A stretch of 64,000 bases of DNA, from assembly GCA_038874135.1 (NCBI GenBank), contig JAVZCZ010000001.1, positions 845,957-909,956 of the forward strand, written 5' to 3'. The DNA comes from Candidatus Woesearchaeota archaeon. Lineage in GTDB: Archaea; Nanobdellota; Nanobdellia; Woesearchaeales; 0-14-0-80-44-23. How positions within the stretch are numbered: the stretch's first letter is position 1; each line of letters opens with the position of its first letter. Positions 12,891 through 62,871 of this stretch are shown piece after piece. Under the pieces are notes generated by a model. It did not search any database. It saw only the letters and a list, made by a program, of their open reading frames with translations, and was not told the origin of the DNA. A program made the position numbers and the translations under genes.

Positions 12891-15359
12891 TCACTTGAAG
12901 AAGCTGCTCAAATTTCTCTGCTGTTTTTCTCCTTGCGCGCCACCTACAAGCTCTTCTTCTTCATATCCGAGAACTTCAAATATGCGCCCTACTGATGGAA
13001 TTATCTGGTTGCTTATGTAGTATTCAGAATCGTAGCTTCCCTCTTCAGCTTCTTCAGGAAGCTTAGCCCTGTCCCTTATCCTGCCCTTTCCCTCAACTAC
13101 TATGTAGGGTATTATTGTGCCCGGGCCAACAACCTTTCTCAGCTCCTTCATCCTCTGAGCAACAGCCACGTGGGGCCCTACGGAGTTGTATTCGTCTACT
13201 CCCTTCTGAAGCTGAGTATATATTATGAGTTGTTCGTTGGGAATCTTCTTTTCTTTGAGCTTCTCAATTATCTGTCTAACATATTTGAAAGCGGCTTCTC
13301 CTTCTCCTCTTTCAAGTATCATTCTCAGAACCTTGGCTTGAACCTCCTTTCCTATTATTGACCAGTTTCTCCTTACAGTTTCAAAGCCTCTAATCTTTAG
13401 CCTTCCAGAGGCTGAGATTAGGGCGTACTTCTTCTTAGCTCCATAGCTTCCAGCCTTTGCTGAAACAAATATTCCCCTGGGGTAAAAGTCCTCAAGCTCC
13501 ATCTCCATTGTTCCAGGAAGTTCCCTGTTTATCTGGTTTAGGAAGTGTTCAGCATCCTCTCTTCTCTTATCTCCCAGGGTGAAAAATATTGAGTCCGTAT
13601 CAGAATATAGTACCTTAAATCCGTTCTCAGTGGCTTTATCAATAACTTTCTTTATGTAATACCTTCCATAAGCAGTTATGCTCTTTGCACACTCTATGCA
13701 GTACCACCTGGCTGCGAAGAAGCCCATATAGCCATACATTGAATTTGCTATTGTTTTTAGAGCGTTCTGCCTAGCGTTCAGCAGCTTTTTGTCGTGCTCA
13801 TTTGCACCTTTGAGAATCTCTTTTATTCTCATCCTTCTTGTTATGAGCTCGTTTATCACAGTAGATATGAAGCCCCGCTTCTTTTTACAGAACCAGTAGT
13901 CCAGCTCGGGCACATCCTCTTTTGAGCTACGGCAGCATTCACAGTTAAGCGTGTCGGGAGATATGTTATGAGTTGTTATTATGCTTGGGTAGAGGCTTCT
14001 GAAGTCAAAAACAACTATGTTGCTGTAAAGTCCCGGCTGCGGCTCAAAGACAAACGCTCCAGGGTAGGTCTGCGCCTTTCTAATCCTAACTTCCTGATGG
14101 TCTGGCTTGTTTGGGATGAGCTCGTTAAAGTTCTTCGCCTCTTTTATTAGAAACCACTCAACTATCTGGCTCGGTCCCATTCTGGAAACTTCAAATGCGG
14201 GCATTCCGACAATCTTTATCAGCTCCATAAGGTTTTCCAGCGTCTTTTCCAGAAGCTTATATGTCAGGGCAGAGTCTTGAAGGTTGTATCTGCAAAAAGC
14301 CTCCAGCTCTTCAGGATTGTTATCCCAGGCAGATGCCAGCTTTTCAATTTCAACTTCTTCCTTTCTCTCATCCAAAAGCTCGGAAGCTACAGAATTAAGG
14401 TCTAGGTATGTTGTTTCTAGCCCTCTCGCCACAGTATTTCTCACAAACTTAAAGACATCAATGTGAGCTATGCCTACAACTCTGCAAGTGCTAATCTGGC
14501 CGTGCGAAACTGCGATTGTGCTGTAGTCCATCCCTATGTCCAGTTCAACCCTATTCTCTTCTGCCCTCTTTTTAAGGTATGGCAGATCGAAGCCGTCTGA
14601 GAAATAGCCTGTTATTATGTCCGGCTTGTGCTCTATAATTACCTGCTTGAACCTTTCTATGAGCTCCCTTTCATCCTTTACAAATTCTATGTAGTCCTCT
14701 TTAGTTTTAAACCTCTTCCAGGTTATTACTTTCTTAAAGTTGTGCGAGTAGAAAGAGCACATAAGGATTGGATCTTTTTCGGGAATCGCCATCTTGCCCT
14801 GCGGGTTGTATGTTTCTATGTCAAAAGCCAGTACTTTCAGTTTGGGTATTGTCTCTTCTGAGAAACATTTGAGTGCAGATGCTTCAAATACCGGCACTCT
14901 TGACTTTCTGTTGACAAATTCGCCTTCTGCTTCGCACAGACAGCACGGTACTATCTCATTATCTATCAAAAACTTCTTTGAAAACGGGATGTCTTCCTCA
15001 AGCACTGAGAAACCCATCTTTTTGATCTCTTCTGCAAAAGCCTCTGAATCGGAAGGATTCCTGAATTCAACCCTTACCGCTTCAACTTCTCTGCCTACCA
15101 GATTCTTTCTGAAAACTTCAGCTGCACTTATCGTTGCAGTAGTGCCGTTCTTCCTTGTTATTCTCAGTTCTCTTATACTGCTTATTTTATGTCCGCTCAG
15201 TGTCTTTTTATCCTCCGGCACTGCCCAAAAGTAGGGATTAAATTTTGAATACTCCACAGCAATAGGGTCGCCATTCTTATCCCTTCCATACATTATCACA
15301 CTTGCCCCTTCCTCCCTTACTTTGCCAGCTATTTCCAGAGGATAAAACTCAATCTTCAT
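12891..15359 (-). CDS. polB: Family B DNA polymerase
   Basis: Exonuclease FDIET; polymerase DFRSLYPS, KTIANSMYG, YSDTDS, KKKY. Confidence 0.97.
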   Translation of the reverse strand: MKIEFYPLEIAGKVREEGASVIMYGRDKNGDPIAVEYSKFNPYFWAVPEDKKTLSGHKISSIRELRITRKNGTTATISAAEVFRKNLVGREVEAVRVEFRNPSDSEAFAEEIKKMGFSVLEEDIPFSKKFLIDNEIVPCCLCEAEGEFVNRKSRVPVFEASALKCFSEETIPKLKVLAFDIETYNPQGKMAIPEKDPILMCSFYSHNFKKVITWKRFKTKEDYIEFVKDERELIERFKQVIIEHKPDIITGYFSDGFDLPYLKKRAEENRVELDIGMDYSTIAVSHGQISTCRVVGIAHIDVFKFVRNTVARGLETTYLDLNSVASELLDERKEEVEIEKLASAWDNNPEELEAFCRYNLQDSALTYKLLEKTLENLMELIKIVGMPAFEVSRMGPSQIVEWFLIKEAKNFNELIPNKPDHQEVRIRKAQTYPGAFVFEPQPGLYSNIVVFDFRSLYPSIITTHNISPDTLNCECCRSSKEDVPELDYWFCKKKRGFISTVINELITRRMRIKEILKGANEHDKKLLNARQNALKTIANSMYGYMGFFAARWYCIECAKSITAYGRYYIKKVIDKATENGFKVLYSDTDSIFFTLGDKRREDAEHFLNQINRELPGTMEMELEDFYPRGIFVSAKAGSYGAKKKYALISASGRLKIRGFETVRRNWSIIGKEVQAKVLRMILERGEGEAAFKYVRQIIEKLKEKKIPNEQLIIYTQLQKGVDEYNSVGPHVAVAQRMKELRKVVGPGTIIPYIVVEGKGRIRDRAKLPEEAEEGSYDSEYYISNQIIPSVGRIFEVLGYEEEELVGGAQGEKQQRNLSSFFK

Positions 15360-53366: not shown

Positions 53367-56300
53367 GTGCTCTCAATGAAACCGAGACATTTTCTGTACA
53401 TCTTATTAGCTATTTTCCTATTCTTAGGATTTAAAACTGCAAGTGCAGCATCTTGTGCTATGATGGGACAATATAAGCTATGCACTGAGAAGTATGATTA
53501 CAGCCCTACTCAGACAGTTCAGATAAACGGATCAGGATTTACTCCGGCAGAAACATACCTGGTAAAGGTAACTAGGCCTGATTCAAGCGTAGTTACTGGA
53601 GACGGAAGCATGCAACCCTGGCCAACCAGCTATGACTATGTGACAGCAAATTCTGAAGGAAAGTTCCAGTTCCAGTACATCTTAAGCGGGAGGATAGGTG
53701 AGTACTTAATTCAAGTTCTCAACTCAGAAGGAATAGTTGTAGTAATTCACTCGTTCGTCACCAACCCGCCTTTACAATGCCCAACCAGAGTGTTTCCAAC
53801 TCAGTCAGTGCAGTGCGTGGCTAACTATATTGGAGAAAATGATAGGCCCGCGCACATAATCTGGTATGACAGGAACAATGTTCAGAAGTTTTCAGGCCCT
53901 TGTAATTCGGAATACTGCAGTGCTTATCATTCTCAGCTTACAACTCTCGGATTATGGACTGTTCAACTTGTAAGAGACTCAGACAATCTCGTATTGGCGA
54001 ATACTACAATCTTAGTAGTGCCCTATCAAAACTATGTTTACCTGTACTCAGACCCTCAGAGGACAGTTGATGCATACACATTCAATCCTGGCGCAACAGT
54101 TTATGCCAAAGTGTCCTCATCCTCAGCTGAGCCTACACTATACCCTACAAGAATAGTGTGGCTCAATTCTCAGGGAGCAGTTGTTAAAACTTCAAAGTAC
54201 TGCACTTATAGCAGCGGACAATTTTTGGACAGCTATACTCTCACAGGAGCAACTCCGGGAACTTGGAAGGTATTGAGAAAGAGATATTATGACTGTGATT
54301 ACTGCGGTATTGGCATGTGTTTCCACTACAGCGCCACAGCAAATTGTGATTTAGATACGAACTGTTACTATGGCTATTATACTGATTTCACAGTTAAAAA
54401 TCCTCAAGTTTGCGGCAATGGCATAGTTGAGGGCTCAGAACAGTGCGATGGTGGAATCTGCTGTAACAACGATTGCACTTTCAAATCTTCTAACACCATG
54501 TGCAGACCCTCTGCTGGAATCTGCGATGTTGCAGAGTACTGCACTGGAAGCAGCGCCTCATGCCCTGCTGATATAAAATCTACTGGAGCTTGCAGGCAAG
54601 CAGTTAATGATTGTGACATTGAAGAATACTGCGATGGGGTGAGCGATGCGTGCCCAGCAGATTCATTCCAGCCTGCTGGAACACCCTGTGAGGATGGGCT
54701 GTACTGCACAGTTGAGGATGTTTGCGACGGCTCAGGAACCTGCTCTGCAGGGGCTCCTCGGGACTGCTCAGCAAATGACATTTCAGAGATTGCCTCATGC
54801 ACCAACGAACCAGATGGAAAACCATTCACTTGGGATTATAGGGCTTCATTTACAAGTGTTTGCGATGAAGCTATGGACGAATGCACTTCTAGCAATCCTG
54901 CAATGAGTCACACCTGTAACAAGGTGGAGTGCAATGCCGAGTGCGAGCAGGACAGCGACTGTAACAATGTGCATATGAGCGGGGACTACTGCAACTATGC
55001 TGGACGCTGTGATACTGAAAATTCCTGCGCATGCGCATACACTGAAGAGTACTGCCCGGAACCTGGAACTATAAGCTCTGGAACATGCTACTACGGAATT
55101 AGGTCTTGCACTGAAAACGGTTGCACTCTATTGAAAAAGGAGATGGGCTCCTATAAGGTTTGTGATAAGAACTTAGGACCAATGGATACGACCCCACCGA
55201 TAATTACAAGGTTAATAAGAGGAACTCTGGGCAGTAACGGCTGGTATGTCTCAGATGTCAAGGTTGAATGGACCGTTACAGATGAGGAATCTCCAGTAGT
55301 AATAGATTATGGATGCCGCGTTCAGCTCTTCAATCTGGAAACAGCTGGAACCACTTCACTTTGTATTGCTCACAGCGAAGGTGGCGTTTCAAGCGATTCA
55401 TTAGGTTTAAAGATTGATAAAACAGGTCCATCAGCACTGCTCTCAGTAACTTCCGGAAACCTCGGTTCTAACGGCTGGTATGTTAGCGATGTTACAATCT
55501 CAACATCTGGTGAGGATGATGTTAGCAGTCCTGTAATCTGCACTCCAGAGCAGCATCTCAGCACGGATAGCGCGGGCACTACCTTCCACGGCAAGTGTGT
55601 AAATGATGCAGGACTTGAGACAGAAGCGGAGCCGTTAACAATAAAGCTGGACAAGACAAATCCTGAAACAACTCTTACAATAGGAGAACCAAAACTGACA
55701 ATAAGTCCAGTTTATGTATCTGCATCCACAGAGTTTTCACTCTCAGCATCTGACGCCACGTCAGGAGTTTATAAAACATATTACTGGTGGGATAACAATG
55801 CAGAGACAGAATATACAGGTAAAATAACCGCTCCAGGCTTGGGAGAACACACACTGCACTACTACTCAGTTGACTATGCTGGAAACATTGAACCAGCCAA
55901 AGCTGAAGATGTGATTGTTGGAGCAACTCGCCTAGTGCTTTTTGCACAGCCCGAAGTTCACTACTCTGACATGTTAGAAATCTCAGCTGAGTTAATTGAG
56001 AAAGCATCTAGTAATCCAATACCGGGAATGAGAGTAAGGTTCATTGTTGGAAATAATTCATATGAGGGGACAACTGACGAGCACGGAATTGCACATGCTT
56101 CAATAAAGATTGAACAGCCAGCTGGGGAATACACCATTGAAGCATACTTTGATGGGGAAGAGGAAAAATACCTTCAGAGTTACAGCTCTCTCAACTTTAG
56201 AGTAATACGGGAAAATACAGCTATAGAATATACTGGCATGACTTTCACTTCAACAGCAGGCCCAACAATAACCAAAGCTCCAGTACTCCTTTCAGCGCAT

Positions 56301-57008
56301 CTAATTCAAGAGAATGATGGCTTCCCCGGCGAGCTGCACCTAGCACAGGTAAACTTCGTGCTTGAACCAATAAGCGGCGGACCAACTATAACAGTACCGA
56401 ATGTTCAGGTCAGCCCTTCAGGAGATGCATACGCAGTTGAAAATATTCCTTACGGAAACTATAAGATAAGTGTTGAGATAACACCTGGAAACACCTACTG
56501 GGATGAAAACCCTGCTGCACTCAGCTCCTTGACAGTTGACCTGGGAAGTAATGAGCAGAGAGTCACAGGAGGCGGCTGGCTTCCTGACAGTGCTAGCTCA
56601 AATGGAAAGGATAACTTTGGCTTCACAGTTTACTACAATAAAAGAGGAGCTCCCAAGGGTAACCTTCTCTTTGTTTTCAGAGGAAGCGACGGCTATAATT
56701 ATGTTCTGAAGAGCAACAGCTGGGCTAAGGGAGGGCTTTCATTCACATCTGAGAACTCTGCAATGTTTACTGCAAAGGCCACACTGAGTAAGATTAATCC
56801 TGAAACTGGAGAAGTGCTCTGGTCTGACGGAAGCTACTCCTTTGTTGTGAATGTGCAGGACATGGACTATGCAGCGAGCAGCTCAAAAAATCGCGACACC
56901 CTTGCAATAACAATATTTGATTCTAACGGAGCAGTTTGGAAGCAGCTGGGCACACCGAGCAGTCAGATAGCAATTGGGGGAGGAAACATAGCAGTGCATA
57001 GCAAGTAA
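53367..57008 (+). CDS. Large secreted Cys-rich surface protein with disintegrin-like and Ig-like repeats (start likely ATG 53376)
   Basis: Signal peptide; CGNGIVEGSEQCD...CRPSAGICDVAEYCTGSSASCP repeats; two GSNGWYVSDV repeats; C-terminal TGGGW domain. Confidence 0.8.
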   Translation: MLSMKPRHFLYILLAIFLFLGFKTASAASCAMMGQYKLCTEKYDYSPTQTVQINGSGFTPAETYLVKVTRPDSSVVTGDGSMQPWPTSYDYVTANSEGKFQFQYILSGRIGEYLIQVLNSEGIVVVIHSFVTNPPLQCPTRVFPTQSVQCVANYIGENDRPAHIIWYDRNNVQKFSGPCNSEYCSAYHSQLTTLGLWTVQLVRDSDNLVLANTTILVVPYQNYVYLYSDPQRTVDAYTFNPGATVYAKVSSSSAEPTLYPTRIVWLNSQGAVVKTSKYCTYSSGQFLDSYTLTGATPGTWKVLRKRYYDCDYCGIGMCFHYSATANCDLDTNCYYGYYTDFTVKNPQVCGNGIVEGSEQCDGGICCNNDCTFKSSNTMCRPSAGICDVAEYCTGSSASCPADIKSTGACRQAVNDCDIEEYCDGVSDACPADSFQPAGTPCEDGLYCTVEDVCDGSGTCSAGAPRDCSANDISEIASCTNEPDGKPFTWDYRASFTSVCDEAMDECTSSNPAMSHTCNKVECNAECEQDSDCNNVHMSGDYCNYAGRCDTENSCACAYTEEYCPEPGTISSGTCYYGIRSCTENGCTLLKKEMGSYKVCDKNLGPMDTTPPIITRLIRGTLGSNGWYVSDVKVEWTVTDEESPVVIDYGCRVQLFNLETAGTTSLCIAHSEGGVSSDSLGLKIDKTGPSALLSVTSGNLGSNGWYVSDVTISTSGEDDVSSPVICTPEQHLSTDSAGTTFHGKCVNDAGLETEAEPLTIKLDKTNPETTLTIGEPKLTISPVYVSASTEFSLSASDATSGVYKTYYWWDNNAETEYTGKITAPGLGEHTLHYYSVDYAGNIEPAKAEDVIVGATRLVLFAQPEVHYSDMLEISAELIEKASSNPIPGMRVRFIVGNNSYEGTTDEHGIAHASIKIEQPAGEYTIEAYFDGEEEKYLQSYSSLNFRVIRENTAIEYTGMTFTSTAGPTITKAPVLLSAHLIQENDGFPGELHLAQVNFVLEPISGGPTITVPNVQVSPSGDAYAVENIPYGNYKISVEITPGNTYWDENPAALSSLTVDLGSNEQRVTGGGWLPDSASSNGKDNFGFTVYYNKRGAPKGNLLFVFRGSDGYNYVLKSNSWAKGGLSFTSENSAMFTAKATLSKINPETGEVLWSDGSYSFVVNVQDMDYAASSSKNRDTLAITIFDSNGAVWKQLGTPSSQIAIGGGNIAVHSK

Positions 57009-61091: not shown

Positions 61092-61316
61092 TTTCTCTAA
61101 ATGTTTCTCAGTTTTATTTAAATTATTTTACCTAATCTCAAATGTGAAAATTTGTTCGTGAGGTAAAAATGTATACTGATTTCTTCTTTGCGTCATTAGG
61201 GAAACAATATAACTTTATACTATAAAAATATAGATTTTTAAAAATATATTTTAAACTTTAAAAATGTTTAAATACTTATTAATTCTGATAGAAGCTTGAA
61301 AAATTTTTTAAAAAAA

Positions 61317-61427
61317 GGGGTTCAAACAAAGGTTTTTGGCGAAACCTTGTTTGAAGCAACTTTCTCGGAATTTGGCGTCGGGGCAGATGAACCCCTGCAA
61401 GATGGACCTGTTGGCGCAGGCATCTTG
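61317..61427 (+). ncRNA. Putative structured ftsZ leader / ncRNA with repeated UUGGCG loops
   Basis: GC-rich patch in an AT-rich intergenic region; hairpins at 61321-61355 and 61398-61427 both loop TTGGCG; a third TTGGCG at 61372. Confidence 0.45.
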
Positions 61428-61546
61428 ATTGAAGAGTAAAAAACCATACTAGAATATAAATATTATGGTTTTGCATTATATTTTTTCCAGAATATGAAGG
61501 TGGGGATTTTTTTTAAAAAAACCATAAAAAAAGGGGGCAAAAAAAG

Positions 61547-62626
61547 ATGGACTATATAATACAAAACGCATTGGAAACCAGCAGCAAACAGGACAGGCGA
61601 GTTCCTGGACTTGAAGGGCAGGCCAACATCAAGGTGATAGGCGTTGGAGGAGCCGGCAACAACATGGTCTCTTGGCTCTACCAGAAGGGCATCAGGGGAG
61701 CAGAGATCCTAGCGTGCAACACCGACGTGCAGCACCTGAACATTACAGAAGCGGACAAGAAGTTCATCATAGGAAAGGATGTCACAAGAGGACTCGGCTG
61801 CGGCGGCTATCCTGAAAAGGGAGCAGAAGCAGCAAAGGAGAGCCTTCAGGAGATAAAAGAGGCGCTCAAGGATGCAGACATGGTATTCGTGTGTGCTGGA
61901 ATGGGAGGAGGTACAGGAACAGGTGCAGCTCCAGTCATCGCAAAGGTTGCCAAGGACAACAACGCAATAGTCATAGGCACAGTCACAATGCCGTTCAAGA
62001 TTGAAAGGGTCAGAGTTGATAAGGCAGAATTCGGACTTCAGCAGCTCAGATCAGTTGCGGACACAGTTGTTGTAATAGACAACAACAGACTCGTCCAGAT
62101 TGCAGGCGGACTTCCAATACAGCAGGCATTCGCAGTTGCAAACGAGCTAATAGCAACCATGATAAAGGGCATAGTAGAGACAATAGCAGTTCCAAGCCTG
62201 GTAAACCTGGACTACGCAGATGTAAAGGCAATAATGTCCAACGGAGGCGTAGCAGCCATAGGCGTGGGCTCCTCAGACACAAACAACAGGGTGGAAGAGG
62301 CAGTAAACGGAGCGCTCTCAAACCCGCTGCTTGACATAAACTACAAGGGAGCAACAGGAGCTCTAATCCATGTTACAGGCGGTCCGGACATGACTCTGGA
62401 AGAGGTCAGCAGGGTCGGCGAACTTGTCACACAATCCATGGATCCAGACGCAAATGTAATCTGGGGAGCAAGGATACAGGAAGACATGAAGAACAAGATA
62501 ACCGTGATGACAATAATCACAGGAGTAAAATCGCCGTGGATTCTCGGAAAGCACGAGCCAAAGACAGCCTCGTCCACCAAGACATCACATGTCAGCGACG
62601 AGCTCGGAATTGAGATAATCCAGTAA
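61547..62626 (+). CDS. ftsZ: Cell division protein FtsZ
   Basis: GVGGAGNN, GMGGGTGTG and NLDYADV motifs. Confidence 0.97.
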   Translation: MDYIIQNALETSSKQDRRVPGLEGQANIKVIGVGGAGNNMVSWLYQKGIRGAEILACNTDVQHLNITEADKKFIIGKDVTRGLGCGGYPEKGAEAAKESLQEIKEALKDADMVFVCAGMGGGTGTGAAPVIAKVAKDNNAIVIGTVTMPFKIERVRVDKAEFGLQQLRSVADTVVVIDNNRLVQIAGGLPIQQAFAVANELIATMIKGIVETIAVPSLVNLDYADVKAIMSNGGVAAIGVGSSDTNNRVEEAVNGALSNPLLDINYKGATGALIHVTGGPDMTLEEVSRVGELVTQSMDPDANVIWGARIQEDMKNKITVMTIITGVKSPWILGKHEPKTASSTKTSHVSDELGIEIIQ

Positions 62627-62681: not shown

Positions 62682-62871
62682 CACGCTCACCTTTCGGTGT
62701 GTGCCTTCACCCAGCTTCTTCTTCCACCCCCCACGAAAGAAGGGCTGAAGGCAGCTGGTCTCCCCTCCCGGAAAGGGCGAGGAGACTTTTTTCTTTTTTT
62801 AATTTCGCAATTGCTTCAACGCAAGGCAAGAATAGGCATGATTATAATGGCAAGCTAATAAGTAATCTAAT

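Follow-up and report, generated by a model that had tools for sequence, protein, structure and literature searches.

Why is one hexanucleotide, TTGGCG, repeated just ahead of an archaeal cell-division gene? The locus that raises this question lies in a 64,000-nt stretch of the genome of a Candidatus Woesearchaeota archaeon (the whole stretch is called the window, and positions are those of the window unless prefixed G000), in which three copies of the word precede an ftsZ gene. Two ftsZ paralogues are found per genome, the second one here being located at G000 14212-15210; the paralogue in the window is presumably ftsZ2, a label that we take from its N-terminal resemblance. Across the whole window the frequency of TTGGCG was near chance (20 seen, 18.3 expected), and among the 254 sites of the 910-kb genome the array ahead of ftsZ2 was the sole same-strand cluster within 100 nt. 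A first-pass annotation had read the region as a plus-strand ftsZ leader displaying one UUGGCG loop on several hairpins, with an alternative pairing between GGGGTTCA and TGAACCCC, i.e., a multivalent protein-binding RNA or switch controlling cell division that matched no recognised family. The TATA box, hairpins, loops, GGGGTTCA, TGAACCCC and ftsZ ATG were all present where that annotation had placed them.

Conservation of the array was evaluated in 101 non-redundant Woesearchaeales ftsZ2 upstream regions selected by FtsZ protein similarity alone, the relatives with named records being mostly Woesearchaeota. TTGGCG occurred 177 times in these regions versus 4.5 expected, with its complement CGCCAA occurring once, and 59 of the 101 carried 2-6 copies located 100-275 nt ahead of the ftsZ2 start. 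The first four stem positions were Watson-Crick in 180-185 of 240 copies, compared with 70-115 when the flanks were mixed. For the covariation test, the first and the last copy per locus were chosen blind to pairing and compared with 500 shuffles plus slid controls. The result revealed two-sided changes at 8/8 pairs in both the first-copy hairpin (hairpin 1; 86.8% paired versus 52.3% in the shuffled set) and the last-copy hairpin (hairpin 3; 78.4% versus 47.7%), with covariation scores of 0.80 and 0.77, respectively, which were reached by 0/500 shuffles, the slid controls giving 0.27 or less. Kinship inflates these covariation counts, yet the loci cover dozens of families and their stems are unrelated. 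Covariation was the check that the first-pass annotation had named, and it bears out the selection on structure plus loop that had been proposed for the region.

When loci were instead selected genome-wide by motif only, 70 triple-motif matches were obtained, 55 of which were structured arrays; 54 of these 55 were situated directly ahead of ftsZ2 in the same orientation, and the remaining one was interrupted by the contig end. The proposed tie of the RNA element to cell division also stands. None of 45 upstream regions of ftsZ1 held a TTGGCG array. The unit is also present in further orders of the class, and a phylum-level pattern search gained no additional lineage. The hairpins are real, conserved across a class and common in DPANN archaea. 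It was also noticed that the loop word changes in all copies at once in several lineages (to TGGACA, TTGGCT, TTGGTA, TTGGTY or TTGGGC), and in a FastTree tree of FtsZ2 these concerted switches fall in several nested lineages.

Two side observations were made during these searches. Viral triple-motif matches were discarded, since each was either a tandem repeat or coding sequence and in no case accompanied by ftsZ or an array of hairpins; the related viral contigs L181 (212-267) and L207 carry three direct TTGGCG repeats with 22-28 nt spacing in AT-rich, hairpin-free intergenic DNA, which are probably DNA operator repeats. In addition, many records titled "uncultured Methanosarcinales archaeon" (L061, L062, L069 and others, with one titled "Alphaproteobacteria") hold Woesearchaeales-type ftsZ2 loci, and these titles look mislabelled.

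The strand on which this structure is selected can be read from the stem mismatches, as a pair that is A-C on the plus strand is G-U on the minus strand. Such mismatches numbered 46 overall, versus 10 of the opposite kind, and among unique embedded wobbles there were 29 G-U on the minus strand versus 4, with four more G-T at the loop-closing pair; an early sign that the first hairpin favoured the plus strand was gone once only unique embedded mismatches were counted. Of 63 loci compared with shuffles, 57 folded better on the minus strand, the mean z being -3.03 there and -1.46 on the plus strand, and in the same 63 loci the minus-strand loops were more accessible (0.93 versus 0.75). In the genome under study, the predicted minus-strand RNA had a minimum free energy (MFE) of -37.6 and a z of -3.76, with 0/200 shuffles as low, compared with a z of -2.37 for the plus strand. 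The raw MFE was lower on the plus strand (-26.0 versus -23.8) because this strand is G-rich. The structure under selection is on the minus strand, with CGCCAA loops, and the hairpins are most likely part of a small RNA encoded opposite to ftsZ2. The middle hairpin, already called weak in the first-pass annotation, was missing from the centroid fold and single-stranded in the fold of this small RNA.

Promoters were scanned in 78 loci with a hand-made general score for the B recognition element (BRE) plus TATA box, at a threshold of at least 11.5. A plus-strand promoter was found upstream of the array in 74 of the 78 loci (12 in the swapped control downstream) and a minus-strand promoter downstream of it in 68 (24 in the swapped control). 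In 54/63 loci the latter comes with a stretch rich in pyrimidines and, at +31 to +33, a sharply placed YRGAA initiator; it also fixes the limits of the array. At the other end, 34/63 relatives had a U4 tract no more than 16 nt from the terminal stem versus a background of 25%, giving a unit with a median length of 108 nt (63 relatives). No reading frame was conserved in the small RNA among the 63 loci, by which a coding function was ruled out. The minus strand thus most likely specifies a predicted non-coding RNA of approximately 110-120 nt with CGCCAA loops, a promoter and initiator of its own and a U-rich terminus, and it is on this strand, not on the plus strand as had been assumed, that the structured RNA is to be sought. 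Since no stronger plus-strand promoter was present between the array and the ftsZ2 start, the complement of the array is probably the ftsZ2 leader. Features of the locus are collected in Table 1.

Table 1. Predicted elements in and around the ftsZ2 unit of the genome under study (window positions)
Feature	Position	Strand	Remark
Operator-like palindromic box (TNNAANATATATNTTNNA) adjoining the plus-strand BRE, upstream side	61238..61255	+	12/12 match
BRE + TATA, putative ftsZ2 promoter	61260..61274	+	predicted start ~61290-61298
Putative plus promoter TATA box TTTAAATA	61267-61274	+	position as in the first-pass annotation
Predicted ~120-nt antisense small RNA	61310..61430	-	three CGCCAA motifs (two hexaloops, one linker)
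U7 tract past terminal hairpin, predicted small-RNA terminator	61310..61316	-
GGGGTTCA and TGAACCCC	61317-61324 and 61388-61395		putative alternative-pairing partners
Hairpin 1 (terminal hairpin of the small RNA)	61321..61355	-	loop CGCCAA 61336-61341; leader strand UUGGCG
Middle CGCCAA copy (TTGGCG on +)	61372..61377	-	weak or no hairpin in this genome
Hairpin 3 (5′ hairpin of the small RNA)	61398..61427	-	loop 61411-61416; G-U pairs numerous on the minus strand
Antisense promoter TATA + BRE	61453..61467	-	predicted start 61429-61430
Second palindromic operator copy, upstream of antisense promoter	61472..61489	-	10/12 match here
G5 Shine-Dalgarno of ftsZ2	61533..61537	+	~120 nt 3′ of array
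ftsZ, 359 aa, FtsZ2-like paralogue	61547..62626	+	ATG 61547; TIGR00065 E 2.5e-120
3′ untranslated region hairpin with C-rich loop	62703..62752	+	loop 62724-62734, complementary to ftsZ2 Shine-Dalgarno
Terminator hairpin + U tract after C-rich hairpin	62756-62801	+

Careful examination of the two promoters revealed an 18-bp palindrome next to the BRE of both. It matched on average at 9.3/12 positions in plus promoters (73 relatives) and 8.7/12 in minus promoters (63 relatives), compared with 4.2/12 at 719 promoters elsewhere in the genome, a contrast that is partly circular as the consensus was taken from these same promoters; the symmetry of the palindrome and its presence in both independent promoter sets escape this circularity. 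The palindrome is also located ahead of an orc1/cdc6 promoter (G000 587670-587688, L277; 10/12), where it scored at least 8 in 9 of 22 relatives (L318-L340), and ftsZ1 promoters were at background; it is possible, judging from sequence, that the ftsZ2 unit and orc1/cdc6 form a cell-cycle regulon. A tandem pair of small ribbon-helix-helix genes (L226 1468-1846, G000 ~750547-750925), not linked to ftsZ2, shows weak similarity to CdrS that falls well short of the cut-off (E between 1e-3 and 1e-4), and its products are candidates for the operator-binding factor.

Rfam searches of the whole window and of the local region gave no credible match at the gathering level or at E<10, and the CopA covariance model (RF00042) in particular had no match above its gathering score. 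The earlier statement that no family matches is therefore correct for catalogued Rfam families; what it overlooked is that the loop word is that of the CopT/repZ kissing loops. Like CopA/CopT of IncFII (RF00042) and Inc/repZ of ColIb-P9 (RF01087), the ftsZ2 unit would consist of a short antisense RNA read from a facing promoter (promoters being predicted here) over an mRNA leader, and its predicted end is a terminal hairpin followed by a U tract. According to the records, the CGCCAA loop is on CopA and the UUGGCG loop on the ColIb-P9 repZ leader, which is the same polarity as here. The YUNR U-turn of CopT promotes first contact (PMC10798244), and in PMC10724649, where the paper on the rUUGGCG motif is cited, GCC is the first contact. 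The unit differs from these systems in that it is chromosomal, archaeal and attached to an essential division gene instead of a plasmid rep target, has 2-6 loops where they have one, and is without leader peptide, pseudoknot and RNase III. On current evidence and by analogy, it would work like CopA/CopT, yet the absence of a model match, the plasmid setting and leader peptide of those systems and the several loops found here indicate that it is not a member.

We lean, with moderate confidence, towards the reading that a multi-loop cis-antisense RNA restrains ftsZ2 via loop-loop kissing. Transcription from the predicted minus promoter would give an RNA of ~110-120 nt that exposes 2-6 CGCCAA loops and ends at a hairpin and U tract, and the facing plus promoter would give the ftsZ2 mRNA, the first ~130 nt of which would be the exact complement with UUGGCG U-turn loops. 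The two RNAs may meet in the manner of CopA and CopT; as the loops are identical, any of them could seed the contact, and pairing could then spread through stems weakened by wobbles. Binding of the leader would lower FtsZ2, most plausibly because the nascent mRNA would terminate early or decay, which is the weakest step of the scheme, and interference between promoters ~180 nt apart may add to the effect. The outputs that come into question are attenuation, decay and promoter interference, because the Shine-Dalgarno sequence (SD) is ~120 nt off, neither a leader peptide nor a pseudoknot partner is present, and RNase III and ProQ are lacking. Through the common operator, a single transcription factor could set the ratio of both RNAs. 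As for the partner, the motif showed no excess at other gene starts of this genome (starts called crudely), by which trans targets at gene starts were ruled out; given this and the strict cis linkage, the simplest assumption is that the small RNA pairs with the leader that it overlaps.

Several observations weigh against kissing at the ftsZ2 leader. Concerted switching of the loop word is not demanded by pure cis pairing, and some variant loops (TACGGCT, ATCGGCT) are not YUNR. The plus strand by itself shows little structural selection, having on its side only 13 G-T at two loop-closing pairs of the first hairpin, and its initiator position is diffuse. Among 63 loci an SD-led upstream reading frame was present in only three, with unrelated frames, and a CGCC pseudoknot partner between array and start in none, by which outputs via a leader peptide or a repZ-type pseudoknot were ruled out; since the genome also has no RNase III gene and no ProQ/FinO gene, the unit cannot use any output mechanism of the plasmids. 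The six-letter match to the plasmid loops could also be a coincidence.

Some of these observations would be better accommodated if the minus-strand RNA were a CsrB-like sponge or scaffold that offers many CGCCAA sites to a division-linked RNA-binding protein, the overlap with the leader reflecting shared promoter control and not pairing. A variable copy number (2-6), motif copies in loops as well as in single-stranded linkers, structural selection on the minus strand alone, and word switches in several independent lineages, which hint at a sequence-specific partner, are all in its favour, and with CsrB/CsrC and RsmX/Y/Z the RNA shares a stand-alone small-RNA form in which an identical motif is repeated in loops and linkers in variable number. 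However, target sites were not found (CGCCAA in 1/101 ftsZ2 leaders and 1/149 3′ regions, with no gene-start enrichment), the array was never seen away from ftsZ2, and the 99% complete genome has no CsrA gene (PF02599) and a single Lsm gene only. Here the motif is CGCCAA, not GGA, and the RNA has a fixed antisense overlap with one gene; an excess of the same motif at target mRNA starts, as in CsrB/RsmZ, was not seen in ftsZ2 leaders and 3′ regions, in ftsZ1 upstream regions or at the crudely called starts of the own genome. We consider a sponge possible but rather doubtful, and the kissing and sponge models can both be true, given a chaperone reading the loops. The protein-binding RNA of the first-pass annotation thus survives as a live rival, being likelier for the minus-strand RNA than for the leader. 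That the plus-strand leader itself is a multivalent protein-binding RNA or switch, as originally proposed, appears improbable: the plus promoter is conserved, UUGGCG hairpins are able to fold on this strand and its raw energy is the lower one, albeit as an effect of G content, but the mismatches that are A-C on this strand are G-U on the other (46 vs 10; 29 vs 4), the minus promoter determines where the array ends, and the alternative pairing is not conserved, GGGGTTCA being absent even from relatives of the genus and family (L002-L004). In the MFE structure, moreover, hairpin 1 and the GGGGTTCA/TGAACCCC helix are formed together, so that the two do not truly compete.

If the small RNA acted in trans like the cuckoo RNAs (PMC4615179), its loops would find their pairing partners in other mRNAs or around the start of ftsZ2. 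The architecture equals that of cuckoo/CcsR RNAs, in which 2-4 hairpins with variable stems carry identical loops, and in two clades the SD region has the variant core (UGGA 3/3, UGGU 7/11); UGGC, however, was found at the SD in just 4/87 UGGC-type loci, the ftsZ1 start does not covary, and gene starts are not enriched. Unlike cuckoo/CcsR, the unit is single copy, archaeal and antisense to a leader, with the loop CGCCAA instead of the anti-SD CCUCCUCCC, and we judge a trans-acting role to be, if anything, slightly less credible than the leader switch. Very unlikely is an element acting at the DNA level, through repeated operator boxes or cruciforms or by promoter collision alone with the RNA as a by-product. 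It is true that L007, L021, L087 and L088 keep facing promoters 50-125 nt apart without an array, but elsewhere the stems are free in sequence yet paired, the G-U bias is one-stranded, and spacing is variable. Clades with changed loop words, i.e., L064/L065/L067 (TGGACA) and L108/L125/L126/L134/L136/L139/L101 (TTGGTY), also show UGGA or UGGU around the SD of ftsZ2; pairing of the loops with this SD was dropped as a general rule, having been seen in two clades only, and pairing with the ftsZ1 start codon, hinted at by this genome, was not upheld in 45 loci. It was further noticed that the anticodon loop of tRNA-Ala(GGC) (L212 194-268, minus strand) reads UUGGCGU here and so repeats the word of the leader loops. 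Two relatives, whose arrays carry TGGACA and TTGGCT, have UUGGCUA instead, and mimicry of this tRNA was rejected, the three genomes read giving no consistent link.

To return to the proposed antisense control of ftsZ2 by kissing, three further systems are comparable in part. ColE1 RNA I/RNA II (RF00106) also has an antisense RNA with UUGGUAG repeated in two loops, a variant word that is found here in L029, but the target there is a replication primer, pairing is Rop-assisted, and YUGG is on the antisense RNA instead of the leader. StfZ of E. coli (PMC9628754) is likewise cis-antisense to ftsZ mRNA, lowers FtsZ and blocks division when overproduced; it is 366-552 nt long, unrelated in sequence, and has no reported repeated-loop architecture. 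At the cdrS-ftsZ2 locus (PMC7439475, PMC8406309), a dedicated regulator is encoded directly upstream of ftsZ2, a linkage present in all archaeal clades except DPANN (PMC7439475); CdrS is a protein transcription factor, whereas in DPANN archaea the RNA unit is at that position.

A second element is located behind the gene, where in 81/115 Woesearchaeales loci the ftsZ2 stop is followed on the plus strand by a hairpin whose loop is C-rich, with a terminator behind it. No promoter of its own was found for this hairpin. Its loop is complementary to the G-run SD of ftsZ2, which is present in 119/147 loci, and in clades with GAGGTGGTGTA or GGAGG as SD the loop word is altered to match; the 16S tail of this genome is the ordinary CACCUCC. 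The SD formed a better duplex with its own 3′ region than with foreign ones in 80/147 loci, barely an excess, because most loci have the same C5 loop. Array and 3′ element occur together in 80/145 loci and are both absent in 25 (kinship uncorrected). The complementarity suggests that the 3′ loop may serve as a fold-back control of ftsZ2 translation. Pairing between the leader loops and the 3′ loop was checked by eye and rejected, as no covariation was seen. In a clade comprising L116, L119, L121 and L138, neither the TTGGCG array nor the minus promoter nor the 3′ element is present; the SD is GGAGG, and the 5′ leader contains, ~60-130 nt ahead of ftsZ, a hairpin with a C-rich loop that is apparently the relocated 3′ element. 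A small conserved bulged helix (UCACC...GGUG; 62683-62702) often precedes the 3′ hairpin and is a possible processing site. Elsewhere in the window, a 1213-aa secreted protein (53367-57008, plus strand) was noticed that contains a disintegrin-like cysteine-rich stretch and Ig-like repeats.

Taken together, one DPANN mRNA could be governed by a three-part RNA circuit made up of 1) a plasmid-like antisense RNA that kisses the 5′ end through several loops, 2) a 3′ loop folding back on the SD, and 3) a single operator common to the two facing promoters and to some of the orc1/cdc6 promoters, the unstable antisense RNA gauging chromosome dosage as CopA gauges plasmid dosage. As a whole, we offer this circuit only tentatively and think it rather unlikely.

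As far as searched, the ftsZ2-linked RNA unit is undescribed: no paper on an ftsZ RNA motif or antisense RNA in Woesearchaeota, DPANN archaea or Nanoarchaeota was found in a search of literature outside subscription journals. Both RNAs are short, making in vitro tests possible without culturing the organism. If the sponge model were true, the unit would point to an undescribed division-linked RNA-binding protein that could be fished with a 120-nt bait; if kissing were true, it would be a chromosomal, archaeal, multi-loop counterpart of plasmid copy-number control in which the same loop words were reached independently. Almost nothing is known about the timing of division in DPANN symbionts, in which the cdrS-ftsZ2 linkage of other archaea is absent, and a class-wide small RNA fixed to ftsZ2 would provide a concrete, testable division regulator for them.
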